Shown: positions 4,571-35,910 of the stretch, one piece after another | Layout: each line of letters opens with the position of its first letter | How positions within the stretch are numbered: the stretch's first letter is position 1 | Assembly: GCA_030425295.1 (NCBI GenBank) | Contig: JAUIAT010000005.1 | Location: forward strand, 8,784-72,783 | From: Gammaproteobacteria bacterium | GTDB taxonomy: Bacteria; Pseudomonadota; Gammaproteobacteria; JAUIAT01 | Direction: 5' to 3' | Length of the DNA stretch: 64,000 nucleotides | Program-made: the position numbers and the translations under genes | Notes under the pieces: generated by a model | Told to the model about the DNA's origin: nothing | The model's database searches: none | Seen by the model: the letters and a program-made list of their open reading frames with translations, nothing else

Positions 4571-4592
4571 AAATACTCCAATACTTTAAAAA

Positions 4593-5864: not shown

Positions 5865-5884
5865 TTTAATAACTCTCCCAGGCC

Positions 5885-13156: not shown

Positions 13157-14390
13157 TAGGATATCCTGCGATTCTTAAGCAGACTTGGCTTTCAGGCAGC
13201 ATTTCAAGGTGCTCGACAATCACACCACTTAAAGTTCTAGGCCCAGACATAGGAAGCTCAAGACTCAACAGGCGGTTTAAATCTCGAATATTCAGCCTTC
13301 CTTCAATTAGGTAAGCCCCGTCTGCTGACTGCCTTACTCCATGCTCAGCAGCTGACCAATCAGTTGTAAATTCGCCAACGATCTCTTCTAATATATCTTC
13401 CATTGTAACCAGGCCTTGAATTTCACCGTATTCATCAAGAACCATAGCAATTCGCCTTCTCTCCCGCTGGAAATTAAATAACTGGACGTCGAGCTGAGCA
13501 CCCTCTGGAATAAAATACACTTCTTCAGCAGCATCTAACAATACCGTTTTATTCATTTTATTTTGGGCAAATTTATTCAATGCCGAACGAACATGCAGCA
13601 TGCCCTTAATGGATTCCAAGCTACCTTGATAAACAGGCAACCAGGTATGCTGAGTAGAAGAAAGCCTTTCCAAAATATTTTCCCAACTTTCATTCATATC
13701 AATACCCTTGATATCATGCAAAGGCACCATAACATCTTCAACAGTTGCATCGGCAAGATCCAAAATGCTAACCAGCATTTGTTTATAATGAGAAGAAACT
13801 TTGCCAGCAGCATCACTTAGCACTGTGCGCAATTCGTCTATAGACAGATGCTCAACTGTACTAGCTTTCTTAACATTCACCTGAAAGCACCAAAGAATAC
13901 CATTAGATACAGTTGTCGAAAGCCAAACTACGGGATATAAAAGTTTAGCCAACCATTTCAAAGGCAGAGAAAAGTGATATGAAATCCAGTCAGGCTTTAT
14001 AGCTGCAAAAGTCTTAGGGGTGATTTCACTAAACACAAGCAAAATCAAAGTAACGGCGATAGTTGCTAAAAAAACACCAAACTCACCAAACAAACGTACT
14101 GATAGCACAGTCGCCACCGCTGAAGCCAACACATTAGCAAAGGTATTACCTATTAAAATAACCCCCAACAACCGATCAGGACGCTTCAGCATATCTTGAA
14201 CACGAACACTAGCCTTATGCCCTTTCCTTGCGCGATGCCTTAGTCTGTAACGATTAATAGACATCATCCCTGTTTCAGAGCTTGAGAAAAAAGCCGAAAT
14301 AAAAACTAGCAAAATAAATAGTGAAATAAGCAATAAGAAAGACTCAGATATCAATATGTTTCCCCAGGTAGACCAGACTAAAGTCATCAC
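13086..14390 (-). CDS. HlyC/CorC family transporter (DUF21-CBS pair-CorC_HlyC)
   Basis: 434 aa with a four-helix N-terminal membrane domain, a CBS pair and a C-terminal transporter-associated domain. Confidence 0.85.
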   Translation of the reverse strand: MMTLVWSTWGNILISESFLLLISLFILLVFISAFFSSSETGMMSINRYRLRHRARKGHKASVRVQDMLKRPDRLLGVILIGNTFANVLASAVATVLSVRLFGEFGVFLATIAVTLILLVFSEITPKTFAAIKPDWISYHFSLPLKWLAKLLYPVVWLSTTVSNGILWCFQVNVKKASTVEHLSIDELRTVLSDAAGKVSSHYKQMLVSILDLADATVEDVMVPLHDIKGIDMNESWENILERLSSTQHTWLPVYQGSLESIKGMLHVRSALNKFAQNKMNKTVLLDAAEEVYFIPEGAQLDVQLFNFQRERRRIAMVLDEYGEIQGLVTMEDILEEIVGEFTTDWSAAEHGVRQSADGAYLIEGRLNIRDLNRLLSLELPMSGPRTLSGVIVEHLEMLPESQVCLRIAGYPIEVVKIKGNKIAEAKIIPKLRSK

Positions 14391-14441
14391 GTATAATCAT
14401 CATACCTCAACATACAACCATTAGAAAATAGTAAAAGCATT

Positions 14442-15881
14442 ATGTTTGATAATTTAAAATCTAGACTTAATAAAACCATTCGCAATCTGCGCGGCCAAGG
14501 TCGTTTAAGCGAAGAAAACATCAAAGCAACCCTAAAAGAGGTCCGCGTCGCACTGCTTGATGCTGACGTTGCCCTTCCCGTAGTTACTAAATTTCTTGGA
14601 CAGGTTAAAGATAAAGCGCTAGGCACCGAAGTTCTAGAAAGCCTAAAACCTGGCGACATGATGATAAAAATCGTCAAGGATGAATTAACTAAGCTACTAG
14701 GACACAAACACAGCGAATTAAACTTAAAAGCCCGCCCACCTGTAGTCATTTTAGTAGCAGGTCTTCAAGGTGCTGGTAAAACAACTAGCGTTGGCAAGCT
14801 TGCACGCTGGCTTAAAGAAAGCAAGAAAAAATCAGTTCTGGTCACCAGTACCGATATTTATCGCCCCGCCGCTATTGACCAGCTAGAAACTCTTGCCGAA
14901 CAAATTGGGGTTAGCTTTTACCCTAGCAGAACAGACCAAGACCCGAAACTAATTGCTGATAACGCAATCGATCAAGCCAGAAAAAGCCTAACTGATGTTG
15001 TAATCATCGATACAGCCGGGCGTCTTCATGTAGATGATGACATGATGAAAGAAATTAAAGATTTGCACAAAGCAACTAACCCAGTTGAAACTCTTTTTGT
15101 AATTGACAGCATGCTCGGCCAAGATGCTGCTAATAGTGCTGCTGCCTTTGCTGAAGCATTGCCCCTAACAGGCACAATACTCACCAAAGTTGATGGTGAC
15201 GCGAGAGGTGGTGCTGCTCTATCAGCTGTTCACATGACAGAAAAACCCATTAAATTCATGGGTACTGGCGAAAAAACTGAGGCGCTAGAATCTTTTCACC
15301 CCGAAAGGATAGCATCACGAATTCTTGGCATGGGAGATCTTGAGTCACTATTCGAAAAAGCTGAGAAGCAGATAGATAAAGATAAAGCCAAAAAGCTAAC
15401 TTCAAAGCTCAAATCTGGGCAGGGGTTCAACTACGAAGATTTTCGTGATCAAATGGCACAAATGCGCAAAATGGGTGGAATGAAAGACATCCTCGGCAAG
15501 CTTCCAAATATGCCAAATCTACCATCAGCTGCAACTAATCAATTTGGCGATAATATGCTAAAACAAACTGATGCTATTATAGGATCAATGACTCCAGTTG
15601 AAAGAAGAAACCCTCAATTACTTCAAAACTCTACTAGCCGGCTTAAACGTATAGCTGGTGGTGCAGGAGTTACCCCGAAAGATGTGAAAAATCTCATTCG
15701 CCAATTCTCTCAAATGCAAAAAATGATGAAAAAATTCAAAGGCGGCAAGATGAAAAACATGATGGGTATGCTTGGCAGCAAATTGGGTGGCGGCATGACA
15801 AAACTTCCTGGAATGCCATCTATGGCGGGAGGGATGCCTTCGCAAAAAAACAAGAAAAAGAAAAAGAAAAAGCGTAAATAG
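14442..15881 (+). CDS. ffh: signal recognition particle protein Ffh
   Basis: GTPase motifs GLQGAGKTT, DTAGR and TKVDGD. Met-rich M domain and a lysine-rich tail. Confidence 0.95.
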   Translation: MFDNLKSRLNKTIRNLRGQGRLSEENIKATLKEVRVALLDADVALPVVTKFLGQVKDKALGTEVLESLKPGDMMIKIVKDELTKLLGHKHSELNLKARPPVVILVAGLQGAGKTTSVGKLARWLKESKKKSVLVTSTDIYRPAAIDQLETLAEQIGVSFYPSRTDQDPKLIADNAIDQARKSLTDVVIIDTAGRLHVDDDMMKEIKDLHKATNPVETLFVIDSMLGQDAANSAAAFAEALPLTGTILTKVDGDARGGAALSAVHMTEKPIKFMGTGEKTEALESFHPERIASRILGMGDLESLFEKAEKQIDKDKAKKLTSKLKSGQGFNYEDFRDQMAQMRKMGGMKDILGKLPNMPNLPSAATNQFGDNMLKQTDAIIGSMTPVERRNPQLLQNSTSRLKRIAGGAGVTPKDVKNLIRQFSQMQKMMKKFKGGKMKNMMGMLGSKLGGGMTKLPGMPSMAGGMPSQKNKKKKKKKRK

Positions 15882-16115: not shown

Positions 16116-17912
16116 TTACTTTAAGTCCGATAACACAATATTAATAAAATCAGATAAAGCCATAGGCTTATAAAAATAAAAACCCTGAGCATAATCGCAT
16201 CCACAATCTCTAAAAAATTCTGCCTGAACTTTAGTTTCAATGCCCTCAGCAACAACATGCATATCAAGAGTTTTTGCAAGATCTAGAATAGGCACTATCA
16301 TGCTATTTTTCTCAGGTACAATATTAATCTCATTAATAATACTACGATCCAGCTTTAGAGTTCTAATTGGAAGTTGCCCGAGCCTTTTCAAAGAGGAGTA
16401 ACCTGTGCCAAAATCATCAATAGCAGTACTTATACCAAGAGAGGCAATATCTTCAATATTCCCCTGAAAATCCTTAATAGATTCAACAAAAAATGACTCT
16501 GTAATCTCAAACTCAAGAAGCGACGGTAATTTAGTGTCCTGCTTCACAGCATTTCTAACTTGCTCCATAAAATGATCATCTTTTAACTGCAATCCAGACA
16601 AGTTAACAGCGAAATAAATATTCTTATCAGTCTTCTTAATTACTTCATTTAATGAATTTAAAGCCTCAGAAAAAATCCACTCCCCAAGAGGCAAAATTGA
16701 CTTATTCAATTCTGCAGCATATATAAATTCAGATGGAGCAACCTTTCCTAAGATCTTATTTTCCCATCGGCACAACACCTCAACCCCAACAATACGATTA
16801 TCAGCTAATCTTACAATAGGCTGATATTCTATATAAAACTCTTTATCCAAACTGCCAGACTTTATGATCTTCTCAAGCTCAACATGCACTTTATGCTTTC
16901 TTTCAATTTCCTCAGAAAAAAAACAATACTGCTCTTTTCCTAAATATTTAGCTTCATACATTGCATGATCAGCATTCTCTCTAAGCACCTGGGGCGATTC
17001 TCCAGATATTGGATAACAAGCAATTCCTATACTAACCCCTATGTGCAGCCTAATATCATTTACATAATAATCTTTAGATACATTATCAATTATTCGTTGA
17101 GAAATTTTACTGGCATCTTCAGGGCTCTGAATTTCGCATATCAGTAAAGCAAACTCATCGCCGCCAATTCTTGAAACACAAGGCTGTTGATTGTTCTGGC
17201 TGATAATATCAGAATCTCGAACAACTCTTTTAATTCTCTGAGCCACCATTTTTAAGAGCTCATCACCAATATCATGACCATAATTATCATTTACATATTT
17301 AAAATTATCTAAATCCAAAAACAACAGTGCAAAAATCGCCTTATTTTTTCTGGCAAGATCTATGTAAGACCCTAGGTACTTATCAAAGCTATGCCTATTA
17401 TAAAGACCTGTAAGACTATCATGACGCGCTAAAGACGAGAGCTTAGTATTAGTCCTAGCTAACTTTTTTTTCTTATCACTAAGATCCTCGATAGTCTCTT
17501 TCATTTGGCTTTGCTGTTTATAATACTCTAGAAAAGTGTTTACTTTACTAGTTAAAATCAATGGATCTATAGGCTTCATCAGGTAATCTACAGCACCGAC
17601 TTCATGACCTTTCAAAATATATTTTTGCTCTTTACTAATTGCAGTTACAAAAATAATCGGGATGTGTGAAGTTTCTCGTCTTGCCTTCAAATGACTAGCA
17701 ACCTCGAAGCCATCCATTTCTGGCATTTGCACATCCAAAAGGATTAAAGCAAAATCTTCTTCCAGGCATAAATGCAAAGCTTCCTTGCCTGATTCTGCAA
17801 AAACACATTCAGCCTTAACATCTTCCAAAGCTGACCCCATAGCAACTAAGTTGCTTTTAACGTCATCTACTACTAATATTTTTGGCAAAACGTTCCTAAC
17901 CACCTCATGCAC
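16116..17912 (-). CDS. response regulator REC-GGDEF-EAL protein
   Basis: REC (LILLDVQMPEMDG), GGDEF (RIGGDEFALL), EAL domain (EVLCRW, DDFGTGYSSL). The start is uncertain: GTG 17912, GTG 17903 or TTG 17888. Confidence 0.9.
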   Translation of the reverse strand: MHEVVRNVLPKILVVDDVKSNLVAMGSALEDVKAECVFAESGKEALHLCLEEDFALILLDVQMPEMDGFEVASHLKARRETSHIPIIFVTAISKEQKYILKGHEVGAVDYLMKPIDPLILTSKVNTFLEYYKQQSQMKETIEDLSDKKKKLARTNTKLSSLARHDSLTGLYNRHSFDKYLGSYIDLARKNKAIFALLFLDLDNFKYVNDNYGHDIGDELLKMVAQRIKRVVRDSDIISQNNQQPCVSRIGGDEFALLICEIQSPEDASKISQRIIDNVSKDYYVNDIRLHIGVSIGIACYPISGESPQVLRENADHAMYEAKYLGKEQYCFFSEEIERKHKVHVELEKIIKSGSLDKEFYIEYQPIVRLADNRIVGVEVLCRWENKILGKVAPSEFIYAAELNKSILPLGEWIFSEALNSLNEVIKKTDKNIYFAVNLSGLQLKDDHFMEQVRNAVKQDTKLPSLLEFEITESFFVESIKDFQGNIEDIASLGISTAIDDFGTGYSSLKRLGQLPIRTLKLDRSIINEINIVPEKNSMIVPILDLAKTLDMHVVAEGIETKVQAEFFRDCGCDYAQGFYFYKPMALSDFINIVLSDLK

Positions 17913-19692
17913 ATCCTTTATATTTGCCAGAAGCTAGTAATCTGCAGGCTTCTACACGTGACATAGGTTTACCTAGATGATATCCTTGACCGAAGCGACA
18001 ACCTTCATTTTTCAAAAATAGGCATTGCTCTTTTGTTTCAACTCCCTCGGCAATTGTCTGAATACCTAGATTTCTTGCCATGGCTATAATTGCTTTCACT
18101 AGTGCACCTCCATCACTTGACTCCCCTAGACTCCCCACAAAGGCGTTATCTATTTTTAGGGCGCAAACAGGCAGATTCCTCAGATCTACAAGTGATGAGT
18201 ACCCTGTTCCGAAATCATCTATAAGAAATTTAACTCCATGACCTGTAATTTTTTGCAAAAGTTCCACTAGCTTAGGTTTATTTTTCATTAAAACAGACTC
18301 AGAAACTTCTAACACTAAATCTTTTAAACTTATACCATGCTCAGAGGCTTGCATCATAAGCTTATTATAAAAATCGCCAAATTGTATTTGTTTCCCAGAG
18401 ATGTTCACAGCTAACTTCACTCCCTTGAAATCTTTTGACTGCCAGTCTTTTAAAACCTTAAAAGACTCAGATAAAACCCATTGCCCAATAGCGTGAATAT
18501 CTCCAGACTCTTCAGCGATAGCAATAAATTGATCAGGGTTCATATCGCCAAGATTTTCAGAGCGCCACCGAAGTAAAGCTTCAAAGCCAAAGATCTCTAA
18601 TTTTTTCAAGTTATAAATTGGCTGAAAATTCAAATAAAATTCATTTTTTTCAATAGCAAACTTCAAATTAGACTCTATTTCTAGGCGACTACCATACTCT
18701 TTCTGCAATGATTTGTTATAAAATTGAGATTGATTCTTGCCCATTGATTTTGCACGGTACATCGCTATATCTGCACTGCGCATAATTGTAGTAACATCTT
18801 GTCCAGCAAAAGGGAAACAAGCCACACCTATGCTAAAAGTAGGAGATTGATTGATCCCAGATACAACTAATGGATCAGAAAGAGCATTAAGCAAATGCTT
18901 TGCAACATTGCCCGCCTCACGATAATTATCAATATAGTTTAAAATAATCCCAAACTCATCGCCGCCAAGCCTTGCAACGATGTCAGTTTGTCTCACATTA
19001 TTCAAAAAAACCTGACTAATCTGCTTTAAAAGCTGATCCCCAGCATCATGCCCCAATGTATCATTAACTATTTTAAAATTATCTATATCGCAAAACAGCA
19101 AGGCAAACTGCTTATTGTAACGCTTACACTCTCTAAGTATTCTCGCTAATTCAACTTCAAATTGCCGTCTATTATAAAGATGGGTTAATGCGTCTTGATT
19201 TGCAAGATTAGACAATGCTTTATTTCTGGCTTTAAGTTCGGCTTTAACGACTCTAAGCTCACCTACTGTTTCAAGATAGTTAACTTTTTTATGCTTTTGC
19301 ATTTCAATAAAAATTTTTATTTTTGAAGCAAGAATACTCTCATCCACGGGGTAAAACATATAGTCTACTGGACCATATTCATAACCTTTGAACATCTTCT
19401 GTTTTTTATCGTTTTCAGATAACAAGAAGATAATTGGTATAGATTGAGTCTTTTTTCTTCTCCTTAGCAAGCTAGCAACCTCATACCCATCCATTCCGGG
19501 CATATCAGCAGCAATTATCACTAAATCAAAACTAGACTCTATTGCCATTTTCAAAGCCTCATGCCCAGAATCAGAGGCAGAAACATCTACATTCAAACTA
19601 GAACAACATTTTTGAACTTTATTGAGGTGCTCTTCATTTAAAGCAGCAAGCAATATACTTGTCTTTAAACTATGAGTTTTATCATTTGACAT
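17905..19692 (-). CDS. response regulator REC-GGDEF-EAL protein
   Basis: REC (VIIAADMPGMDG), I-site RQTD five residues before RLGGDEFGI, EAL (EALLRW, DDFGTGYSSL). Confidence 0.9.
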   Translation of the reverse strand: MSNDKTHSLKTSILLAALNEEHLNKVQKCCSSLNVDVSASDSGHEALKMAIESSFDLVIIAADMPGMDGYEVASLLRRRKKTQSIPIIFLLSENDKKQKMFKGYEYGPVDYMFYPVDESILASKIKIFIEMQKHKKVNYLETVGELRVVKAELKARNKALSNLANQDALTHLYNRRQFEVELARILRECKRYNKQFALLFCDIDNFKIVNDTLGHDAGDQLLKQISQVFLNNVRQTDIVARLGGDEFGIILNYIDNYREAGNVAKHLLNALSDPLVVSGINQSPTFSIGVACFPFAGQDVTTIMRSADIAMYRAKSMGKNQSQFYNKSLQKEYGSRLEIESNLKFAIEKNEFYLNFQPIYNLKKLEIFGFEALLRWRSENLGDMNPDQFIAIAEESGDIHAIGQWVLSESFKVLKDWQSKDFKGVKLAVNISGKQIQFGDFYNKLMMQASEHGISLKDLVLEVSESVLMKNKPKLVELLQKITGHGVKFLIDDFGTGYSSLVDLRNLPVCALKIDNAFVGSLGESSDGGALVKAIIAMARNLGIQTIAEGVETKEQCLFLKNEGCRFGQGYHLGKPMSRVEACRLLASGKYKGCA

Positions 19693-20266
19693 TATTACCC
19701 CCGTCCAACTGATTCAAACGAGATGCAATTTGATCTAACTCTAAAACCTCATCGACTTTAGTGATTGCCAAAGCTGATCTAGGCATTTCACTAGATAACG
19801 CAGTTTCAGGGTTCTGCACAATTGTATAACCTCCCAAGTCATGTATTTTTTTGATACCCAAAGCCCCATCGCTATTGGCACCAGTCAACAAAACGCCTAT
19901 TACTTTATCTTTATAAACATGAGCCGCTGAATCAAACAGCACATCAATGCTAGGGCGAGAAAAATTCACTCTCGGATCAGCGGATAATGACAAGCTAGTT
20001 TTGTCTTCGACTAAAAGATGATAACCGGGGGGAGCAACATAAGCCTTACCTCGATTTATTTTTATTTTATCCACTGCCTCAAGCACATCTAAGCTACTCG
20101 CCCTATTGATATGCTGCACATAATAATTATCACTTCCTTCTTTGATATGCTGAACTAAAAAAATAGGTATTGAAAAATCTTCATGGAACTTACTAAAAAT
20201 TTTGTAGAATGCCTCTAATCCACCTGATGACGCCCCAATAACTATAGCCTCAAAACAATTACTCAT
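19682..20266 (-). CDS. cheB: CheB-type protein-glutamate methylesterase, catalytic domain only (no REC)
   Basis: 194 aa starting directly at the esterase domain (AIVIGASSGGLEAF). ATGA overlap with CheR. Confidence 0.85.
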   Translation of the reverse strand: MSNCFEAIVIGASSGGLEAFYKIFSKFHEDFSIPIFLVQHIKEGSDNYYVQHINRASSLDVLEAVDKIKINRGKAYVAPPGYHLLVEDKTSLSLSADPRVNFSRPSIDVLFDSAAHVYKDKVIGVLLTGANSDGALGIKKIHDLGGYTIVQNPETALSSEMPRSALAITKVDEVLELDQIASRLNQLDGGNNVK

Positions 20267-21111
20267 GACTTCCTCTGATATATTCGGTATTTCTCATCCA
20301 CAACTTCAAAGTCATTTTCCACCTCTGTAAACCGTAATGTTTCTTTAGACCCGAGACAAAGATAGCCTTTGTGACACAAGCTATCTCTAAATAATTTTAG
20401 CACCTGGTTTTGTAAATTTTTATTAAAGTAAATTAATACGTTTCTACATAGGATTACATTCATTTCACCAAATGATCTGTCGACTGCTAAGTTATGATTA
20501 GCAAAAGTGATCCGTCTTTTTAGAAAATCTCTTAATTTAACCGCATTATAGCTACTCGTATAATATTCTGATAAACCAGAGGTACCACCAGCTTTATTAT
20601 AATTTTCAATATATTGCTTTACATTTGACGCATCATAAATACCAGTTTTTGCACACTCTAAAGCAACCTGATTAAAGTCAGTAGCATAAATTGTAGCTCT
20701 GTCCAGAAAACCTTCTTCGTGCAATAAAATAGCCATAGAAAAGACTTCCTCACCAGTTGCACAACCTGCATGCCAGACTTTTATATAAGGATAAGTTTTA
20801 AGTTTTGGAATAATATTTTCTCGAAAAGACTTGTAAAATTCAGGATCACGAAACATCTCTGTAACTGTGATAGACATTTGTCTTAAAAAAACCTCGAATA
20901 GCCCTTCATCGTATAAAAGCCTATCTGCTAACTGCAAATAAGTATCAAACTTATGATCCAGCATAAAACCAGTGACTCTTCTACGAAGAGAGGCATTGGC
21001 ATACTCATGGAAGTCATATCCATAAATTTTCTCAACAATATCTAAAAGACACTGTAGAGCTAAATTATCTTTCTTTTCATCTTCCATCGAAACCTCTATT
21101 TTGAAAGCCAT
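20263..21111 (-). CDS. cheR: CheR-type protein-glutamate O-methyltransferase
   Basis: TEMFRDPEFY, VWHAGCATGEEVFSMA and ILCRNVLIYF motifs. An alternative ATG at 21087 sits behind a GAGG RBS. Confidence 0.85.
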   Translation of the reverse strand: MAFKIEVSMEDEKKDNLALQCLLDIVEKIYGYDFHEYANASLRRRVTGFMLDHKFDTYLQLADRLLYDEGLFEVFLRQMSITVTEMFRDPEFYKSFRENIIPKLKTYPYIKVWHAGCATGEEVFSMAILLHEEGFLDRATIYATDFNQVALECAKTGIYDASNVKQYIENYNKAGGTSGLSEYYTSSYNAVKLRDFLKRRITFANHNLAVDRSFGEMNVILCRNVLIYFNKNLQNQVLKLFRDSLCHKGYLCLGSKETLRFTEVENDFEVVDEKYRIYQRKS

Positions 21112-24100
21112 ACTTTCATCATAGATAGGAGCTGATCTGTATCTATAGGCTTAGTGATATAATCACTAGCTCCTGCCGCTATACACTTTTCCCGATCTCC
21201 TGACATTGCTTTTGCAGTCAAAGCTATAATTGGAAGGGTTTTAAACTTACTATCTTTCCTAATTTCTTTCATAGCTTCATACCCATCCATGACTGGCATC
21301 ATAATATCCATAAGGACTAAGTCTATATTTGCTTCTTCATTAATTTTATCTAAAGCCAATTTTCCATTAGTAGCAATTATTACCTGCATGTCATAGTCTT
21401 CTAGCTCACTTGAAAGTGCATATACATTTCTCATATCATCATCGACAAGCAAAACCTTCTTACCGACTAAAGATTCGTTACCTTTATTGATCATATTAAT
21501 AGTAGAGTGAGAATTACCACCTGATTTTTGATCGACGCTATACAAGAATAAAGTCACTTCATCCAAAAGCCTCTCTGGAGCATCAGATCCCTTTACAACA
21601 ATACTAGAGGTATATTTTTGCAGACGCGCATGCTCATCTTCCGACAACTCCCGCCCTGTGTAAATTACAATATTAGGCATTTGATCAATTGATGAGTCCA
21701 ACTTATCTAACAAGTCAAAACCGGACTCAGTTTTAAGATTTAAATCCAAGATTACACAATCAAAGTCATTATTTGTTATTTGGTTAATTGCAGCTTCAGA
21801 GTTTGAAACTGTGACCACTTCGGCATCTTTATTTTCAAGTAAAGTTTTTATTGCAGATTGACTTGTCAGATCATCTTCAACAACCAAAACAGATTTAATA
21901 TCAGCGCCTTCGGCTTGATGGATCCTATCAAATACTTCTTTCAAAGCATCCTCATCTGCAGGTTTTTTCAAATAACCAATTGCCCCTTTTTTCAATATAT
22001 CTGGACTCTCCTCTCTACCAGAAATGACGTGCACAGGTATATCTTTAGTTTCAGGGTTGTCTTTTAAGGTTGAAAGAACAATCGTTCCATCTACATCTGG
22101 CAGCCCAAGATCTAAGACAATTGCAGAAGGCTTTATTTGCTTAGCCATAGCTATCGCCTCACGACCAGAACTTGAGGTGACACATTGATATTTTTGCTCT
22201 TCCGCAAAGTCTTTAATAATATTGGCAAAGGCAACATCATCTTCAACCACCAAAAGAGTTGGTTTATTAGGATCAAGTTCAGGAATTTGACTTGTAGATA
22301 TATTTACATCCTGAATTTCTGGTTTAACCTCTATAGTTTCTGAAGAGTCTGTAACGGTTACTTTATCAGTAGAGATGACTTTATCTGTAGCCAAAGCCCC
22401 TCTTTCACCTATGGGCAAATATATACTAAATCTACTTCCCTGCCCTTCAATGCTTTCAAGCTCAATCGAACCACCTAATAAATCAGTCATTGCACGCGAT
22501 ATAGCTAATCCTAAGCCAGTACCACCGTATTTACGTGTAGTTGAACCTTCAGCCTGCTGAAAAGCCTCAAATATTTCTTGCTGTTTATCTTTAGGGATAC
22601 CAATTCCTGTATCAATCACCGAAAATACCACTGAATCATCATTAGAATAAACATGCCCAGATAAACTTACATTTGTCGATGGGAGCCCAATTCTAAGAAG
22701 AACAGAACCTTTCTCAGTAAATTTAAATGCATTTGACAAGAAATTACGCAATATCTGTGTTAAACGTAATTTATCTGAAAATATACTGACGGGCACTCCA
22801 TTATCAATTTCAATTTTAAACTGCAAATCAGATTCTTCAGCAACGTGATCCATTTGCTGCCTAATATCATCACAAAGAGATTGAATATTAAATTCTGTCA
22901 TCTCAATTTGCATTTTGCCCGCTTCAACTTTAGACAAATCTAAAATATCATTAATCAAATTTAAAAGATCTTTACCCCCGCCATAAATAACCCTAGCAGA
23001 CTCTACCTGCTTGTTATTCAAATTTCCTTCCTTATTATCCGCCAGTTTCTTGGAAAGAATTAGCAAACTATTAAGTGGAGTCCTCAATTCATGGGAAACA
23101 TTAGCTAGAAATTCGGATTTATACTTGCTGGACAAAGCTAAATCTTTCGCTCGCTGCTCTAGCTCTTCTCTAGTAGCCTGAATTTCTTTATTTTGCTTTT
23201 CAAGACGCTGTGTTTTTTCAGCCATTTCTTCATTAATTACTCGCAATTCTTCACTTTGTGTACGTAGCTCTTCTTCTGAAGCTTGAAGAGAATTGGCTTT
23301 TTCTTCTAATTCTTCATTACTAGCCTTCAACTCTTCTTGTTGAGTTTGCAACTCTTCTTGTTGCTCTTTAAGCTTTTCAGTCATTCCTTGAGACTCTTCT
23401 AGTAATTTTTGAGTCTTTTCATGAGCCAACACATTACTAATAATTACACCTAATCCCCTAGAGACTTCATTTATAACCTCACAATCACCATCAGAAAATG
23501 GTGTAAAAGTTGCAAGCTCCACAACACCAATAATTAAATTTTCATGGAAAATAGGAGAAACTATAACCTGTTTTGGTGTTTCACTGCCCAGACCAGATGT
23601 AATATGAATATATTCTTCTGGAACATCTGTTATTGAAATAATCTTACGCTCTAAAGCACACTGCCCGACCAAACCTTCGCCTAATTTAAAGCTATTAGAG
23701 ATACTTTTTCTTTTGCTATAGGCAAAACTGGCAAACAATTTTAATATTTGATCTGAAGACTCTTTATCAAAATCTTCAATCATATAAAACGCTCCAAATC
23801 CTGCTTTTAATGTATTAGAAAGCTCATTAATTACTGTTTGCATTAAAGCAGATAAATCATGCTGACCTTGAGATAAGCCAATAATTCTAGCCGTATTAGT
23901 CTTTATCCAAATCCGTTGTTCATTATTTTCTTCCAGTTTTTGTAAATCGCCTTTCATTTTTGCAAGAGCCAAACCTAGAAGATCTTTCTCACTTCGAGGA
24001 ATAATCTCAACACTAAAGTCTCCTTCACCAATTTTTTTAGCAGAACTGGCAAGCTCCTTCGTATTATCAATAAGGCTTTTAAAAACACTTGAAAGCTGAC

Positions 24101-25136
24101 CTATCTCGTCAGAGCTATTAACACTTACATCAACATCAACATCACCTTTGCTAAAATCTTCAGCTGCTAACTTTAACTTGGAAATAGGCTTAGCAAGATT
24201 TTTTGATATATACCAAGACAGAAAGCTGCCCACTCCAAAAGCTGCAACCAAAATCAAAATCATGGCAAATGTCATCCAAGTGATTTTTGATTTAGAGAGT
24301 TCCAAATGAGCATTAGCAATACTTTGCAGCTTATCGCCCAAGATAGCATCCATTCTCAAACTATAATTTTCAAGACTAACCATTAGTTGCGCTTTTTCAC
24401 TCTCTAAAGCTAATATTTTTTCAACGGCAAGTTTAATTTCGGATTTGTGCTTTTTAAGCTCCTCAAGCCAAGTAGATTCTTGTCTATTTAGATTTAACAA
24501 TGATAACTTCGCAAACCAAGAATCAACGTCAAGCAAAGAATCTTTTACTTTATCTTTTGTTTCGCTACTTTGATTTAACATATACCCGCGGGTAGCTGAG
24601 AATAGCTCATGTAAGTTTAGTTCAATTTCTAAGACTGCTTCTTTTTTGGCGTCATATTGTCGATCAGATTTATTTAAATTAACCTGCCATTGATCGTCCA
24701 AAACATCAACAGTACTTTGCTTTATATAACGAGATAGTTGACTGGTTTCTGAGATCTGCTCATTTTCAAGCTTAAATACCTGATTTGCGATATCTAGAAA
24801 TGGTTTAAGATTTTCATCTAAAGATTTTAAATAAGATTTTTCATGGTCAGATAGTGGCGTAGATTGATAAATGTTTAAAAAGTCTTTAAAGTCCTGAATA
24901 TTAGACTTAAAGTCATTTTGTTTTTCTGGGTTTTTACTTTCAAGATAATCCAACAGATCCTTAATTGCTTCTTTCTCATTAATTTCCATTTCTAAAGCTG
25001 AATTGATTTTCAAAGTATCTTGCTTAATAGCATTATTAAAAATACTCCAACTCCATGACATGGAAAGAAAAGAAATAATACCAATAAGAAGTAGCGGAGA
25101 AAGGATAGAAACAAGCATCTTCTGGCGTATTTTCAT
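21096..25136 (-). CDS. hybrid sensor histidine kinase (2 TM, HAMP, GAF, coiled coil, HisKA-HATPase, three REC domains)
   Basis: H-box SHELRTPLNSL, G-box GGTGLGLAISR, and REC aspartates in VLDLGLPDVDG, ILDLNLKTESG and LMDIMMPVMDG. A GAGGGA RBS favours the ATG at 25136; the track start is the ATG at 25193. Confidence 0.9.
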   Translation of the reverse strand: MKIRQKMLVSILSPLLLIGIISFLSMSWSWSIFNNAIKQDTLKINSALEMEINEKEAIKDLLDYLESKNPEKQNDFKSNIQDFKDFLNIYQSTPLSDHEKSYLKSLDENLKPFLDIANQVFKLENEQISETSQLSRYIKQSTVDVLDDQWQVNLNKSDRQYDAKKEAVLEIELNLHELFSATRGYMLNQSSETKDKVKDSLLDVDSWFAKLSLLNLNRQESTWLEELKKHKSEIKLAVEKILALESEKAQLMVSLENYSLRMDAILGDKLQSIANAHLELSKSKITWMTFAMILILVAAFGVGSFLSWYISKNLAKPISKLKLAAEDFSKGDVDVDVSVNSSDEIGQLSSVFKSLIDNTKELASSAKKIGEGDFSVEIIPRSEKDLLGLALAKMKGDLQKLEENNEQRIWIKTNTARIIGLSQGQHDLSALMQTVINELSNTLKAGFGAFYMIEDFDKESSDQILKLFASFAYSKRKSISNSFKLGEGLVGQCALERKIISITDVPEEYIHITSGLGSETPKQVIVSPIFHENLIIGVVELATFTPFSDGDCEVINEVSRGLGVIISNVLAHEKTQKLLEESQGMTEKLKEQQEELQTQQEELKASNEELEEKANSLQASEEELRTQSEELRVINEEMAEKTQRLEKQNKEIQATREELEQRAKDLALSSKYKSEFLANVSHELRTPLNSLLILSKKLADNKEGNLNNKQVESARVIYGGGKDLLNLINDILDLSKVEAGKMQIEMTEFNIQSLCDDIRQQMDHVAEESDLQFKIEIDNGVPVSIFSDKLRLTQILRNFLSNAFKFTEKGSVLLRIGLPSTNVSLSGHVYSNDDSVVFSVIDTGIGIPKDKQQEIFEAFQQAEGSTTRKYGGTGLGLAISRAMTDLLGGSIELESIEGQGSRFSIYLPIGERGALATDKVISTDKVTVTDSSETIEVKPEIQDVNISTSQIPELDPNKPTLLVVEDDVAFANIIKDFAEEQKYQCVTSSSGREAIAMAKQIKPSAIVLDLGLPDVDGTIVLSTLKDNPETKDIPVHVISGREESPDILKKGAIGYLKKPADEDALKEVFDRIHQAEGADIKSVLVVEDDLTSQSAIKTLLENKDAEVVTVSNSEAAINQITNNDFDCVILDLNLKTESGFDLLDKLDSSIDQMPNIVIYTGRELSEDEHARLQKYTSSIVVKGSDAPERLLDEVTLFLYSVDQKSGGNSHSTINMINKGNESLVGKKVLLVDDDMRNVYALSSELEDYDMQVIIATNGKLALDKINEEANIDLVLMDIMMPVMDGYEAMKEIRKDSKFKTLPIIALTAKAMSGDREKCIAAGASDYITKPIDTDQLLSMMKVWLSK

Positions 25137-25343
25137 TAAGTAGTCCCTCAAAATTCCATTTCTAAAGTGACCTAAAATCAGCACCCCAAACATACATGGG
25201 TTTTAATTAATTATAGTTTTATTTAATTATAGAATGATGAAACAATAATTACCAAAAATGCTCTCTGGACATTAGCTCAGATTGCTGGTTATGATTAGGG
25301 CCTGCTGACTATTCATTTTTTTCTATTCACGAAAGGAACTCGT

Positions 25344-28013: not shown

Positions 28014-29135
28014 TCAAGGGCTAGGGTTACTATTGTCAACTTGTGGATCATCAGACCTTCCTGCCTTTATTGTTGATACTACCTCTGCTGCCAGGCTTGC
28101 AAGGCCTTTAAACATTTCCCCTATTTCTTTGGCAAATGCCTGTATCTCAGATAGGGACTCAACTGCATGTTCTTGCGCAGCTCCAGCTTGGTCACCCAGT
28201 GATCTAATACCTGATTCAAAACCTTCGAACACTTTAACCAAAGAGTCAGAGGCTTCACTAATTTTATTATCTAAATCAGCTATATCTTTTTTAAGAGAAG
28301 CATGGCCCTGACTTAACTCACCCCGAATATCTTCTAAAAATGCCACAACCACAAATAAAATATTATTCGATGCAACATTGTTATATCTTTCTTTAAAGCT
28401 TTGTGCTTTATCAGAGAAATCCTTGAACCTACTTCTTATTTGTGCACACTTCCTATTTATAAGTTTTTGCCTAATTTCCTCTCCAAACTCGGCTTTAATG
28501 CCATCCTTAATATAGGCCTTCACAAGACCGTTTAATTCAGACGGATCCAGGTCTTTTTTAATATCTTCACGAGCCGCATCTATATAAACTTTCCTGACTC
28601 CTAACCCAGAATGTCCAGGCTGGCTGTTTATTTCATCAGTAGCAAGGTCAGTTAACACTTCATTTTTAAGATCAGCTAATTCTGCTTTAGTAAGACTTTC
28701 AAATTTGTCTTCAGCTAATTTATCTAACTCATCACTCTCAAGCTTACTTAATTCTTCAGAAAATATTAGAGAGTCCTCTTTCAAGAGTTCATTCTTAATC
28801 TTTTTAAGAGTTTCTTTACCAGCATCGATGAGACCTTCTTGGCCTAGTTGAACAACTTCACCTGGATTTGCTTTCCTAGCAACGTCAATGGCCCCTTTTT
28901 CAAATTCACTACTAGAATAACCAGAGGCCCCGTCATATTTGACAGACAAATCATTAGCGAACTTAGCAAAATCCTTATACGCTTTTATAAAATTTTCTAA
29001 TTCATCTTTAATTTTTGGGTACACTTTTTCATCGTACGTCAACTCCCAAGCCAATTTATAATTGGAAGATGATTTTTCTAAATATACCCTTTTCTTACCC
29101 AGGCTCTCTATATATAAATCTCTATATGTACCCAT
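28014..29135 (-). CDS. hypothetical all-helical protein (orphan; no signal peptide or TM)
   Basis: 373-aa ORF rich in K, E and D with coiled-coil character. No motif I recognise. Confidence 0.5.
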   Translation of the reverse strand: MGTYRDLYIESLGKKRVYLEKSSSNYKLAWELTYDEKVYPKIKDELENFIKAYKDFAKFANDLSVKYDGASGYSSSEFEKGAIDVARKANPGEVVQLGQEGLIDAGKETLKKIKNELLKEDSLIFSEELSKLESDELDKLAEDKFESLTKAELADLKNEVLTDLATDEINSQPGHSGLGVRKVYIDAAREDIKKDLDPSELNGLVKAYIKDGIKAEFGEEIRQKLINRKCAQIRSRFKDFSDKAQSFKERYNNVASNNILFVVVAFLEDIRGELSQGHASLKKDIADLDNKISEASDSLVKVFEGFESGIRSLGDQAGAAQEHAVESLSEIQAFAKEIGEMFKGLASLAAEVVSTIKAGRSDDPQVDNSNPSP

Positions 29136-31785: not shown

Positions 31786-34128
31786 ATGGAAAGAAAAACT
31801 GAAACTATATACGAATGGATTATGCTGCTGGCCAATGAAATGGATCAACAAGGCATCCGTCCAACCATTTCTAAAATAAAAGCAAAAGTAGGCAGAGAAG
31901 TTTCACAAGCTCAAGTTGCCAAATACCTTAGAATTTGGAAAAAAGAAAAGGCTGAAATAGACAAGCCTGTTAAGTGGGTTAATTCACAAGAACTTCACGA
32001 TGATAAACAAACTGACGAAAGCGATTCCGAAGGTAATGTATCGGTAGCCGTAAAGAAACAAACCGCTCAATTGACGCAATCACTTGCCCTGGTTCGCGCG
32101 ACTCTAGAGGCCACAATCGATGGCATTCTCATAATAAGTAAAGAAGGTAAGCTAGTCGACTGGAATAAAAAACTTATTGAAATAATGCACGTCCCGGAAC
32201 AGGTACTTATGAGTCGTGATGAAGAAGGTGGAGTTGCAATGCTTTTAGAGCAGGTTGCCGACCCCCAATCACTTATGAACGATATCATGTACTGTATGCA
32301 GAACCCAGAAGCATCAGTTAACCTAGGTGAAATGCTTTGTAAAGATGGCAGGATAATTGAAAGATACTCACAACCTCACATTGTTGATGGCGAAATTGTC
32401 GGTAGAGTTTGGAGTTTTCGTGACATTACTGAACGCAAACAAACCGAGCTTGAACTTCTCCTCAAAAATCGAGCGATGGAGGCAAGCCCAAATGGCATAT
32501 TTATTTTAGATGCTATTAACAACAACCTGCCTATGCAATATGTAAACCCTGCATTTGAAAACATGACAGGGTATGCAAGCTCAGAAGTATTGGGTGAAAA
32601 ATGCATTTTCTTGCAAAATAAGTACGATAAGGACCCCCAAAGCCACAAACTTGAAGAGATAATTCATCAAAAAGAAACAAACAAAGTAGAAATGAAATGC
32701 TATAAGTTTGACGGCACCTCATACTGGGGAGAAATCCATATAGCACCAGTGCCAGACCCTAATGGTGACATTAGATATTTTGTAGGAATTGTTGTTGATA
32801 TTACTGATAGAGTTAAACTTAGAAAGCAACTTGAACATCAAGTCACACATGACTCATTAACAAGCCTTCCTAACCGGGCATTACTTTGGGACCGTTTACA
32901 TCAAGCAACACTCCATGCAAAAAGAAACAAGCGTATTGTTGCTGTTTTATTTATTGACCTAGATAGATTCAAACTGATAAATGATAGCCTAGGCCATTTA
33001 TTAGGGGATAAGCTCTTGGAAGAAGTTGCAAACCGCTTACTTGCAACAGCTCGAGAATATGACACTGTATCAAGGCTAGGTGGAGATGAATTTGTAATTG
33101 TTTTGGCTGGTATTGAGCAAGAAGAAGATGCTGTAAACTGTGCGATGAGAGTATTAGAAGAAGTGTCTAAACCATACCAGATTCAAGGCCACACATTAAA
33201 TACTACAGCTAGTATTGGCATATGCTTTTATCCAAAAGATGGTAAAACTGTTGAGACCTTGTTAAAACATGCTGACTTATCAATGTATCGAGCAAAAGAA
33301 AAGGGTCGTAACAACTTTAAATTCTATACAAGCGGATCCAACAAGGCAGTTAATAGACTATTAAAAATTGAAAATAATTTGCGGACAGCGCTACAAAATC
33401 ACGAGTTTAAACTTGTTTACCAACCAATTATTGAAATTAAAACAGGAAAAGTTATTGGTTGTGAGTCACTTATAAGATGGCACAACCCTGAACTAGGCCA
33501 AGTTAGACCAGATGAATTCATCCCCATCGCAGAAGAAAACCGTATCATCGGCAAAATTGGTGAATGGGTTCTAGCTAGGTCCTGTAAAACTATCACATCT
33601 CTAGAAGAAATTGGAATACAAAATTTCAATATGGCAGTTAATTTATCTGCTAGAGAATTCAAGCAGAAAGGCTTAATTGATTTAATCTCAAAAATATTGC
33701 GCAAATACAGTATTGACCCAAAACAAATTCATTTAGAAATTACTGAAAGAGTTGTAATGGAAGACATAGAGTACGTAATTGATATACTAAATAAATTAAA
33801 AGATCTTGGAGTTCACATAGAACTAGATGACTTTGGAACTGAGTATTCATCTTTAAGTTACTTAATAAGGCTACCGATTGACGCCATAAAAATTGATCTT
33901 TCATTTACCAGAGCATTGTATGCAAAAGCAGAAAACGAATCATTGGTTAAGTCAATAATAGCTCTTGGGAAAAGCCTAGGAATCAGGATAATTGCTGAAG
34001 GCATAGAAAATCAAAAACAATATAATTTCTACAAAGAAAATAAATGTGACTTTGGGCAAGGTTATTTAATGTCTAAACCTTTATCATATGATGAATTAAT
34101 TGAATTTTTGAAAGCACAACGAATCTAA
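31786..34128 (+). CDS. multidomain c-di-GMP protein: KfrA_N-like N-terminus, PAS, LOV-like PAS, GGDEF, EAL
   Basis: I-site REYD plus RLGGDEFVIVL. EAL domain (ESLIRW, LDDFGTEYSSL). Two PAS cores. Confidence 0.9.
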   Translation: MERKTETIYEWIMLLANEMDQQGIRPTISKIKAKVGREVSQAQVAKYLRIWKKEKAEIDKPVKWVNSQELHDDKQTDESDSEGNVSVAVKKQTAQLTQSLALVRATLEATIDGILIISKEGKLVDWNKKLIEIMHVPEQVLMSRDEEGGVAMLLEQVADPQSLMNDIMYCMQNPEASVNLGEMLCKDGRIIERYSQPHIVDGEIVGRVWSFRDITERKQTELELLLKNRAMEASPNGIFILDAINNNLPMQYVNPAFENMTGYASSEVLGEKCIFLQNKYDKDPQSHKLEEIIHQKETNKVEMKCYKFDGTSYWGEIHIAPVPDPNGDIRYFVGIVVDITDRVKLRKQLEHQVTHDSLTSLPNRALLWDRLHQATLHAKRNKRIVAVLFIDLDRFKLINDSLGHLLGDKLLEEVANRLLATAREYDTVSRLGGDEFVIVLAGIEQEEDAVNCAMRVLEEVSKPYQIQGHTLNTTASIGICFYPKDGKTVETLLKHADLSMYRAKEKGRNNFKFYTSGSNKAVNRLLKIENNLRTALQNHEFKLVYQPIIEIKTGKVIGCESLIRWHNPELGQVRPDEFIPIAEENRIIGKIGEWVLARSCKTITSLEEIGIQNFNMAVNLSAREFKQKGLIDLISKILRKYSIDPKQIHLEITERVVMEDIEYVIDILNKLKDLGVHIELDDFGTEYSSLSYLIRLPIDAIKIDLSFTRALYAKAENESLVKSIIALGKSLGIRIIAEGIENQKQYNFYKENKCDFGQGYLMSKPLSYDELIEFLKAQRI

Positions 34129-34476: not shown

Positions 34477-35910
34477 TCATGCACTCTCAAGACAAGCTTC
34501 AGCTTCAGGACTTAAAGCCCAAGAAGTAAGGACTTTATTAGGGTCATGCAATTTTTTCATAGCTTCTCTAAATTCAAATTCATCCCCATAATGATGCGAC
34601 CAATATTCATCTCGATCAAAATCTGCTAGCCATCCAGATAAATATCGCTTAGATCCAACAGCTAATAACATAGAGTTAATATACTTAAGCTTAGATAGAA
34701 TAGTCTCACTCATGTGCTCATCAACCCCCATTGGCAAGATAGCCAAAGCAAACAAATGATTCGTTGGCGGCCGCATAAACAACCTTGGCAATGACCTATC
34801 ATTAATAGGCTGGAATCGACAGCTTGCAACTTGCGGAGGTAATATATTCAATATCTCAGGCAAAACTTTACTCAGACTACTTGCCGAGATAAAGCAGTCA
34901 ATCCAGGGGTGAGGCCTATTCCAGTCACCAGTCTGATGCATTTGTTTAAATCTAATTTGATACCTTTCATAAAATTCAACAGTTTCAGTGTCAGAAATAT
35001 CAGAACATTGCCAAAAATTAATATAAGGTAAGAAATTTTCTCCTGTTGGAGGAGATTGAGGGGTGTCATACTCACAACCAAGATGTAAAGCATAAACCCA
35101 ATGAGCATATGGTTCACGCTTTCCTTTATTAAAACGGGTACCAGGGATACAAGGAATTGTAAAAGTTTCAATGTGATCACAAATACGATTACATTTGAGA
35201 TTCACTTCTGCATCAATGCAAGCATCTAAACTATCAAATAATAAAGTCCAAGATCTTGTATATTTTTTAAATCGCCTTAATCTCAAAGTAGCTTTTGTAG
35301 TTATCGATGAATAGCCAAGGTTAGATAATGATGAATGAAATAGTTTTTTATCCTTCTGCCAATTACACTTAACATGCTTACCATTTCCAGTAAGAACCTC
35401 GAGCGATTCAACAGTACTAACAACAGGACCATAAATGTGACTATTCGAAGCAATACCACCAACTGCTAAAACTCCGCCTAACGTGATGTCATCATTTGCC
35501 ATTGTAACCTCTGGTATGACACCATCTGACAAACAAGCTTTCTTGATTTCACCCCAATTAGCTCCAGTTTCACAGGTTATTGTCATGTTATTTAGGTCAG
35601 GCGCTTCAATATTATTCAAATTGGTTAAAATCACTGACAGTGATTTAAACCCAGCAATTGACTGGCCGCCTTCACTTAAACCTTTGCCTCTAGGAGTTAA
35701 AGCTAAATGATGCCTATTCGCATACTCAACTAGTAATTTTAATTGAGCAATGTTATGAGGTATTGCTACCCCAGAGCAATCACCCTTAACCAAGCGTCCA
35801 AAGTCATGATTCGCCTGATTCAAACTGTCTTCATCACGCATAAGCCTCAGACCTACAAACTTTTCACAGTCTTTCAGACATTGCTCAGACCAATCAGCTT
35901 TATTCGGCAT
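34477..35910 (-). CDS. FAD-linked oxidase, cytokinin dehydrogenase (CKX)-like
   Basis: FAD_binding_4-type N-terminus (TPRGKGLSEGGQS). The C-terminal RPHPWIDCFI resembles the plant CKX signature PHPWLNxF. Confidence 0.7.
   Translation of the reverse strand: MPNKADWSEQCLKDCEKFVGLRLMRDEDSLNQANHDFGRLVKGDCSGVAIPHNIAQLKLLVEYANRHHLALTPRGKGLSEGGQSIAGFKSLSVILTNLNNIEAPDLNNMTITCETGANWGEIKKACLSDGVIPEVTMANDDITLGGVLAVGGIASNSHIYGPVVSTVESLEVLTGNGKHVKCNWQKDKKLFHSSLSNLGYSSITTKATLRLRRFKKYTRSWTLLFDSLDACIDAEVNLKCNRICDHIETFTIPCIPGTRFNKGKREPYAHWVYALHLGCEYDTPQSPPTGENFLPYINFWQCSDISDTETVEFYERYQIRFKQMHQTGDWNRPHPWIDCFISASSLSKVLPEILNILPPQVASCRFQPINDRSLPRLFMRPPTNHLFALAILPMGVDEHMSETILSKLKYINSMLLAVGSKRYLSGWLADFDRDEYWSHHYGDEFEFREAMKKLHDPNKVLTSWALSPEAEACLESA

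Follow-up and report, generated by a model that had tools for sequence, protein, structure and literature searches.

A Glutamate-Rich Heptad Array in a Hybrid Histidine Kinase as a Probable Methyl-Accepting Adaptation Helix Encoded Beside CheR and CheB

Covalent sensory adaptation through glutamate methylation is usually taught as a chemoreceptor property. That CheR-type enzymes can methylate a histidine kinase was established with RsbK of Bacillus cereus, yet this work concerned one organism and involved no demethylase. Specifically, RsbK consists of CHASE3, HAMP, GAF, signaling-helix (S-helix), kinase core, and REC portions, and it is methylated “on a signaling helix” by the CheR-type protein RsbM, a product of the same operon (Chen et al. 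2015, PMC4574943). In vitro, RsbK becomes labeled when purified RsbM is supplied with 14C-S-adenosylmethionine (SAM), and loss of RsbM results in constitutively high sigma-B (PMC4574943). RsbM has no paired methylesterase, and deletion of B. cereus cheB is stated to have no effect, with the data not shown (PMC4574943). The same authors cite 127 RsbK-like kinases in 10 phyla (PMC4574943). The genomic association of RsbK with CheR is credited to de Been and colleagues in a 2026 paper (PMC12848376). Thus far, CheR-type methylation of this helix has been demonstrated for RsbK only (PMC4574943). Here, we analyze a 64,000-nucleotide stretch of DNA from a Gammaproteobacteria bacterium (the window; assembly GCA_030425295.1, contig JAUIAT010000005.1, positions 8,784 to 72,783), which encodes a hybrid histidine kinase with an array of ten heptads, most containing Glu-Glu-Leu (EE-L), followed by cheR and cheB genes. 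We judge that the array is probably the methyl-accepting adaptation helix, or S-helix, of an RsbK/CfcA-type hybrid kinase and that CheR and CheB would modify it. The principle is already published for RsbK, and this kind of regulation is known and little studied. What may be new is a variant that contains CheB, has multiple sites, and has a cyclic di-GMP (c-di-GMP) output, together with a rule that links EE-L heptads to cheR adjacency.

The kinship of the window locus with the RsbK system was judged through a Planococcaceae locus, L070. This locus has the RsbK–RsbM–RsbY gene content: a CHASE3-GAF kinase with one REC domain, an abutting CheR-type gene, and a nearby REC-PP2C gene. The window kinase aligns with the L070 kinase at 34% identity over 818 aa (E=1e-129), and the sole gap in the linker is exactly two heptads long. 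The window CheR aligns with the L070 CheR-type protein at 48% identity over 275 aa, without gaps, scoring 275 bits. With the Planococcaceae orthologue as query, the 120 matches listed came from Lysinibacillus, Priestia, Niallia, Fictibacillus, and similar bacteria and did not include B. cereus RsbK.

The array lies at positions 23157..23375 on the minus strand, as do all features of this locus given below, and corresponds to aa 607-679 of the kinase. In translation, its ten units read KLKEQQEELQ, TQQEELK, ASNEELE, EKANSLQ, ASEEELR, TQSEELR, VINEEMA, EKTQRLE, KQNKEIQ, and ATREELE. The triplet E-[ED]-[LM] occurs in 7/10 heptads, all in one register, and the other three heptads are degenerate (NSL, QRL, KEI). 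Pfam places the array after the GAF domain (aa 444-585) and before HisKA (aa 692-759), where the phospho-accepting His701 (codon CAT, 23091..23093) lies in the H-box SHELRTP. A previous interpretation of this DNA made from the letters alone (the sequence-only reading) had named this peptide, its position, and that of the His codon, all of which are exact in translation, and had rightly set the heptads between GAF and H-box. It had also proposed that Glu-Glu pairs recur on one helical face. The two positions preceding the hydrophobic heptad position hold 18/26 of the Glu residues. A hydrophobic residue fills the latter position in 13 of 15 heptads, while polar residues (Q/N/S/T) take the other core position. 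As it had further noted, the classical chemoreceptor methylation consensus EExxA(S/T) is present at E620-E621-L-K-A-S (EELKAS), which is one of the seven EE heptads; the others read EELQTQ, EELEEK, EELRTQ, EELRVI, EEMAEK, and EELEQR.

Could such an array arise trivially? In-register E-[ED]-[LMIV] triplets were counted in 200,000 composition-preserving shuffles of aa 597-690. The observed count is 7 and the maximum in any shuffle is 4. Because no shuffle reached seven, chance and low complexity are rejected as the origin of the array. Tandem Repeats Finder reported no DNA-level tandem repeat at the array; the periodicity therefore exists only at the protein level, and an origin by recent slippage or duplication is likewise rejected. 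A Pfam match to FapA spanning aa 576-691 fell under the family cut-off and was taken as coiled-coil noise. From an alignment of 12 family members, AlphaFold2 predicts a single unbroken helix at aa 593-719 (positions 23037..23417; mean predicted local distance difference test score, pLDDT, 91.5). The predicted helix comprises the GAF-to-DHp linker, that is, the S-helix or adaptation helix, and DHp helix 1 with His701, after which the model continues into the DHp turn and helix 2.

The array was also compared across relatives. Full-length relatives have in common a highly conserved DHp (...DLLxLINDILDLSKIE) and the C-terminal portion of the linker. They differ in how many EE-L heptads they carry, and their sensors include CHASE3, 4HB, dCache, or HAMP arrays. 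We scanned one genome per species for the DHp motifs of the family and took the best 80 of at least 597 matches with 10-kb flanks. These loci span Bacillota, Bacteroidota, Cyanobacteria, Actinomycetota, Gemmatimonadota, Chloroflexota, Acidobacteriota, several proteobacterial classes, and others. CheR and CheB were found with hidden Markov models (HMMs) seeded from the window’s own proteins. Downstream sequence of at least 1.5 kb was available for 76 kinases, of which 35 have an adjoining cheR on the same strand and 41 do not. The median number of E[ED][LMI] triplets in the linker is 4 in the cheR-adjacent group versus 0 in the other (Mann-Whitney p=1e-12, kinship ignored). At least three triplets are present in 30/35 cheR-adjacent kinases versus 5/41 without cheR (Fisher p=6e-11). 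Thus, the repeat is not equally common in kinases with and without such neighbors. Equal frequency, together with a lack of methylation in vitro, was the outcome that the sequence-only reading had named as fatal to its proposal of a CheR/CheB substrate. That proposal gains support from the co-variation and from homology to RsbK; what it put forward as a candidate mechanism was, in the RsbK family, already known.

Several subsidiary observations agree with the association. When kinases were clustered at ~70% core identity, 31 cheR-linked clusters averaged 4.15 triplets versus 1.48 in 12 others (p=1.4e-5). At 60% identity, two clusters contain both kinds of kinase; triplets number 3-5 in their cheR-linked members and 0-3 in the others. 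With positions counted from the phospho-accepting His (H), EE pairs at H-52/H-59 and from H-73 to H-94 are found in 42-64% of cheR-linked kinases versus 2-20% of those without cheR. The cheR-less kinases keep the Leu register and replace the Glu, as in QQRELQQTNEQLEQKAQ and SQELENRQKALQASNAELEEK, and they tend toward a shorter stalk. Finally, 8/8 relatives retrieved separately from metagenome and genome assemblies fit the rule. Six of these (P0122, P0125, P0126, P0127, P0129, P0148) have at least three in-register heptads, with cheR adjoining in 6/6 and cheB too in 4/6, and two (P0128, P0143) have at most two heptads and no cheR or cheB, with the downstream REC-kinase kept. P0125 and P0128, both HAMP-array kinases, differ in heptad number and in cheR alike. 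The closest relative, P0122 (48% identity; GCA_022599615.1, an 11-kb contig), has the same order of kinase, cheR, cheB, and REC-GGDEF-EAL gene as the window.

One alternative interpretation is that the array is merely a structural or signaling coiled coil that relays HAMP/GAF changes, and that CheR and CheB act on targets elsewhere, such as the REC domains, the REC-GGDEF-EAL proteins, or an unlinked chemoreceptor. Signaling helices in many kinases are typically continuous and have a polar core, and the cheR-less relatives retain both the coiled coil and the downstream REC-kinase partner. Moreover, CheR is reported to methylate the response regulator PhoP in Salmonella (PMC8546571). A purely structural coil, however, does not account for the loss of EE pairs in precisely those kinases that lack cheR. 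The constant neighbor of this CheR subfamily is the kinase, whereas the outputs vary among REC-kinase, REC-GGDEF-EAL, and REC-PP2C; no chemoreceptor genes lie nearby; and RsbK is directly methylated on the homologous helix (PMC4574943). We consider this alternative improbable.

If the array is methylated, as we favor, which residues are the acceptors? The candidate sites are the Glu residues immediately N-terminal of the heptad Leu, a choice made by inference: E614 (23352..23354, H-87), E621 (23331..23333, H-80, in EELKAS, the sole EExxA(S/T) match), E628 (23310..23312, H-73), E642 (23268..23270, H-59), E649 (23247..23249, H-52), and, in NEEM, E656 (23226..23228, H-45). E677 (23163..23165, H-24, in REEL) is a weaker candidate; at its heptad, EE pairs are not enriched in cheR-linked relatives. 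In the Bacillaceae RsbK-like proteins listed, H-59 is the second Glu of an SEEL heptad in all, and H-66 is so in all but three. In the window kinase, H-59 is E642 and H-66 is S635. Chen and colleagues reportedly found in 2012 that RsbK is methylated at E439 and E446, with H505 as the phospho-acceptor. These sites would be H-66 and H-59, in which case window E642 would match E446.

A second alternative is that the EE-L heptads are a docking surface for CheR and CheB, in the role of the pentapeptide of methyl-accepting chemotaxis proteins (MCPs), with the modified residues elsewhere, for example in the HAMP region or the DHp. The window kinase has no pentapeptide of its own, and the repeat recurs in proteins where an interaction module would be in place: CheB-CheR-PAS fusions. 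The sequence-only reading had mentioned NEEL-type repeats in such fusions, and we saw them in both that we checked. P0158 (Nodosilinea) has the order CheB_methylest, CheR, PAS_10, HisKA, HATPase, REC, and the 1407-aa fusion of Nostoc L004 (13113-17384, minus strand of its locus) has CheB at aa 51-229 and CheR at aa 256-514. Each carries five in-register N-E-E-[LI] heptads, located past the CheR domain in the Nostoc protein; a repeat directly past CheR would suit docking. The Nostoc gene lies 695 nt from, and on the strand opposite to, a HAMP-array kinase of the window-kinase family, an adjacency that links the fusion proteins to this family. However, a multi-copy, in-register acidic helix is nearer to the heptad-spaced methylation sites of MCPs than to any known tether, and in RsbK methylation has been placed on the S-helix itself (PMC4574943). 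The occurrence of the repeat right behind CheR in fusions also counts in favor of the methyl-accepting reading. We regard a docking role in place of methylation as very unlikely.

Searches with the motif alone place the fusions at a distance. HMMER with the 84-aa coil against 1.84 billion representative proteins returned 670 matches at E <=0.001. In the 145 proteins newly fetched from 150 matches listed, an H-box lies shortly downstream of the repeat in 116, and no CheB-CheR fusion is among the 145, so that the fusions stand further off as relatives of the motif. Most often the repeat takes the form of a four-heptad unit, QQEELRx xNEELEE QxxxLxx SExxLxx, present one to three times over. A word-indexed search with the 126-aa linker gave only fragments of at most 221 aa, which were uninformative as to architecture and context.

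The genes of the window locus show what the putative adaptation system would comprise. The kinase (1365 aa, 21096..25193) has, by Pfam, a 4HB_MCP-type sensor (aa 20-147), a transmembrane segment, HAMP (329-378), GAF, the helix, HisKA, HATPase_c (807-928), and three REC domains (~978-1090, 1100-1215, 1245-1360). The database copy, P0121, is 1346 aa long, 19 residues shorter than the longest open reading frame (ORF); translation therefore probably begins with the ATG of aa 20 (MKIRQK...). The kinase stop is overlapped by 16 nt by the gene for a CheR-type protein-glutamate O-methyltransferase (282 aa, 20263..21111). This protein matches PF03705 (CheR_N, 1.8e-7) and PF01739 (SAM-binding CheR, 5.5e-40), and it aligns with the solved CheR structures 5FTW, 1BC5, and 1AF7, of which 5FTW is nearest, though its 117 bits fall well below the 275 bits reached with the L070 CheR-type protein. 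It scores 79.6 bits against the NCBIfam chemotaxis CheR equivalog, far under the cut-off of 435 bits. A CheB methylesterase gene (194 aa, 19682..20266) follows with a 4-nt overlap. Its product is a catalytic domain only, with no N-terminal receiver domain in Pfam, and its motifs GAS13SGG, QH40, and NSD133GA line up with their counterparts in the solved CheB 6YMZ. We take S13, H40, and D133 to be the Ser-His-Asp catalytic triad, as in Salmonella CheB. Next come two REC-GGDEF-EAL response regulators, of 595 aa (17905..19692, overlapping cheB by 11 nt and the likely output) and 598 aa (16116..17912, overlapping the first regulator by 8 nt). The order kinase, cheR, cheB, regulator, regulator is thus operon-like, with successive overlaps of 4-16 nt.

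The methylation genes do not belong to a chemotaxis cluster. Pfam gave no MCPsignal match in the window kinase, no chemoreceptor-tip motif occurs anywhere in the 64-kb window, and a tip motif lies within 10 kb in only 1/82 related loci; it follows that the CheR/CheB pair is not part of a chemotaxis cluster, and we reject that membership. Among the ORFs listed between 10 and 36 kb, cheR and cheB are the sole chemotaxis genes, CheA and CheW not having been searched for by profile. In related loci, nearly all CheB proteins are ~190-210 aa long and thus receiver-less, and cheB stands beside cheR in 25/35 cheR-linked loci. The commonest gene after cheR/cheB in relatives encodes a REC-HisKA-HATPase “second-tier” kinase, an arrangement suggestive of a phosphorelay in two tiers. 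In one relative, L003, a second, upstream kinase (3303-6194) also bears an EE-L-like stretch (HNEELLAQQDELQAQQQELRATLEFL).

Is the modification reversible? A third alternative holds that CheR methylates the helix once, as a constitutive maturation step or “off-lock” like that proposed for RsbK and RsbM, and that CheB acts mainly as a deamidase or is vestigial, so that there is no reversible adaptation. Here, the B. cereus precedent is pertinent: the methyltransferase is an orphan, and the cheB deletion is stated to be without effect (data not shown; PMC4574943). The window CheB also has no receiver domain, and 10/35 cheR-linked loci have no cheB at all. Against this stand the remaining 25 loci that retain cheB beside cheR, the presence of the catalytic-motif residues in the window CheB, and gene overlaps that look like translational coupling. 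Moreover, no Gln occupies any candidate position, and hence there is no substrate for a deamidase. A one-way lock is plausible for cheR-only loci and less so in the window, because there a conserved cheB overlaps cheR and retains the catalytic motifs. As an account of the window kinase, we find the lock doubtful.

Several observations weigh against a methyl-accepting adaptation helix. A single heptad, EELKAS, fits the Escherichia coli EExxA(S/T) consensus, and the kinase lacks the C-terminal pentapeptide that tethers the enzymes in MCPs. Glu-rich heptads occur in many unrelated coiled coils, such as those of P0252 and P0259. The association with cheR has exceptions: no more than 2 triplets are present in five cheR-linked kinases, and five cheR-less kinases have 3, one of the latter being the kinase of Nostoc L004, which has the CheB-CheR fusion gene as its neighbor. 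The 80 loci are the top-scoring part of at least 597 matches, drawn with a query that took in the linker, and they are phylogenetically clumped, with many Streptomyces, for example. At H-66, reportedly a methylated position in RsbK, the window kinase has Ser and not Glu. Finally, the receiver-less CheB has no obvious feedback input, and CheB plays no part in B. cereus RsbK regulation (PMC4574943).

On balance, we continue to favor the methyl-accepting helix, and we propose how it could work. The helix would form a parallel coiled-coil stalk joining the HAMP-GAF input to DHp helix 1 and His701. A Leu core position alternating with a polar one (N/Q/S/T) would make the helix pair marginally stable and switchable, and the Glu pairs would flank the dimer interface immediately ahead of the Leu. 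By analogy with RsbK and with the seven-residue spacing of MCP methylation sites, we infer that CheR esterifies the Glu preceding Leu in several heptads (E614, E621, E628, E642, E649, E656), and the receiver-less CheB would hydrolyze the methyl esters. The resulting loss of charge would lessen repulsion and change how the helices pack or rotate, and would thereby tip the DHp-CA core between kinase and phosphatase activity. RsbK is off when methylated; if this precedent holds, the methylated window kinase would be off. The output would be phosphotransfer to the two co-transcribed REC-GGDEF-EAL regulators and, through them, c-di-GMP turnover. Both of these tandem regulators (16116-19692, minus strand) keep GGDEF; one has EAL and the other EVL. 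A PAS-GGDEF-EAL protein (780 aa, 31786-34128, plus strand) is encoded ~7 kb from the kinase, which brings the GGDEF-EAL proteins in the window to three.

A stronger proposition is that kinases with both cheR and a receiver-less cheB possess complete MCP-style adaptation within a two-component kinase, with no CheA, CheW, or receptor arrays. We offer it tentatively, as a possibility that we would not yet expect to hold. If so, six or seven reversibly methylated Glu residues in the stalk would constitute a stimulus memory and make the c-di-GMP output adapt. Since there is no CheA to phosphorylate CheB, any feedback would arise from how accessible the substrate is to CheR and CheB in each conformation, instead of from CheB phosphorylation. 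The number of EE heptads, which ranges from 2 to 7 or more by whole-heptad insertions, would set the dynamic range, and the repeat in CheB-CheR-PAS fusions would be an in-cis substrate.

Other features of the window are recorded for completeness. The window G+C content is 37.7%. A 379-aa ORF (35900-37039, minus strand) has a strikingly Trp-rich, charged C-terminal half (...WRDWKSEQPKYSWLPESEESWKNRDKWGMSWEDEMRQEWQARKAWERANWERNN...). A 373-aa ORF (28014-29135, minus strand) is highly charged and helical-looking, with no obvious family, and the 101-aa ORF that overlaps it on the opposite strand is probably spurious. The Ffh (SRP54)-like protein at 14442-15881 (plus strand) ends in a poly-lysine tail, KNKKKKKKKRK; an antisense 120-aa ORF at 14387-14749 is probably not a gene.

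Beyond this locus, the occurrence of the EE-L heptad array follows cheR adjacency in at least ten phyla, which makes the array a sequence signature. Most cheR-linked loci also have a receiver-less cheB, and their outputs vary among a second-tier kinase, PP2C, and c-di-GMP enzymes. The signature offers a simple predictor of methyl-accepting kinases and of the Glu residues to mutate. It thus provides a tractable route to the question of whether ordinary two-component systems adapt as chemotaxis does. For annotation, “CheR” and “CheB” beside such kinases should not be read as chemotaxis genes.

How, then, does the window locus compare with known systems? MCP methylation helices share with it the Glu pairs every seven residues on one coiled-coil face and the CheR/CheB-family enzymes, and the four-helix-bundle sensor family of the window kinase also occurs in MCPs. 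Unlike MCPs, the kinase has neither an MCP signaling domain nor a pentapeptide, and CheA and CheW, with which MCPs operate, are not seen among the ORFs listed between 10 and 36 kb. Its helix is presumed to be a parallel two-helix stalk running into the DHp, whereas the MCP helices form an antiparallel four-helix bundle, and the motif of the kinase family is x-[QN]-E-E-L-x-x versus EExxA(S/T). In the CheB-CheR-PAS fusions, the repeat differs in lying within the enzyme’s own polypeptide, after CheR, and not after a GAF domain.

The signaling helix described by Anantharaman, Balaji, and Aravind in 2006 is reportedly a coiled coil of ~40-90 residues from the sensor domain to the DHp. EE-L repeats are not known to be part of its definition, in which an ERT signature is central. 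The window kinase has EKT (aa 659-661) and its Bacillaceae relatives EERT. The RsbK authors call the RsbK helix an “S-helix” (PMC4574943).

Among c-di-GMP systems, the cfcABCDE cluster of Pseudomonas putida KT2440 is comparable. There, the kinase CfcA is clustered with CfcB (CheR) and CfcC (CheB). A CHASE3/GAF hybrid kinase, CfcA (PP_3761) is required for the diguanylate-cyclase activity of CfcR, and the output, as in the window, is c-di-GMP via a GGDEF/EAL response regulator. The Pseudomonas loci in our set (L014, L036, L066) have the order kinase, cheR, cheB, REC-kinase, with 4-5 EE-L heptads. They differ in that a REC-HisKA-HATPase kinase follows cheB and CfcR is encoded elsewhere, whereas in the window two REC-GGDEF-EAL genes follow directly. 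The papers on CfcA that we searched for its methylation make no mention of it, and in the accessible literature no methylation is demonstrated for any CheB-containing variant.

The closest relationship is with the RsbK module. Both have the order sensor-HAMP-GAF-helix-HisKA-HATPase-REC, a CheR-type gene directly downstream, and EE-L heptads 45-90 residues ahead of the phospho-His. The window kinase differs in having a 4HB_MCP-type sensor and not CHASE3, three REC domains and not one, two extra heptads, and a neighboring cheB. Its output also differs: the RsbK module acts through the REC-PP2C regulator RsbY and sigma-B, whereas two REC-GGDEF-EAL regulators are encoded downstream of the window kinase. 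A REC-PP2C partner is a defining feature of the sigma-B module, not of the methylatable kinase.

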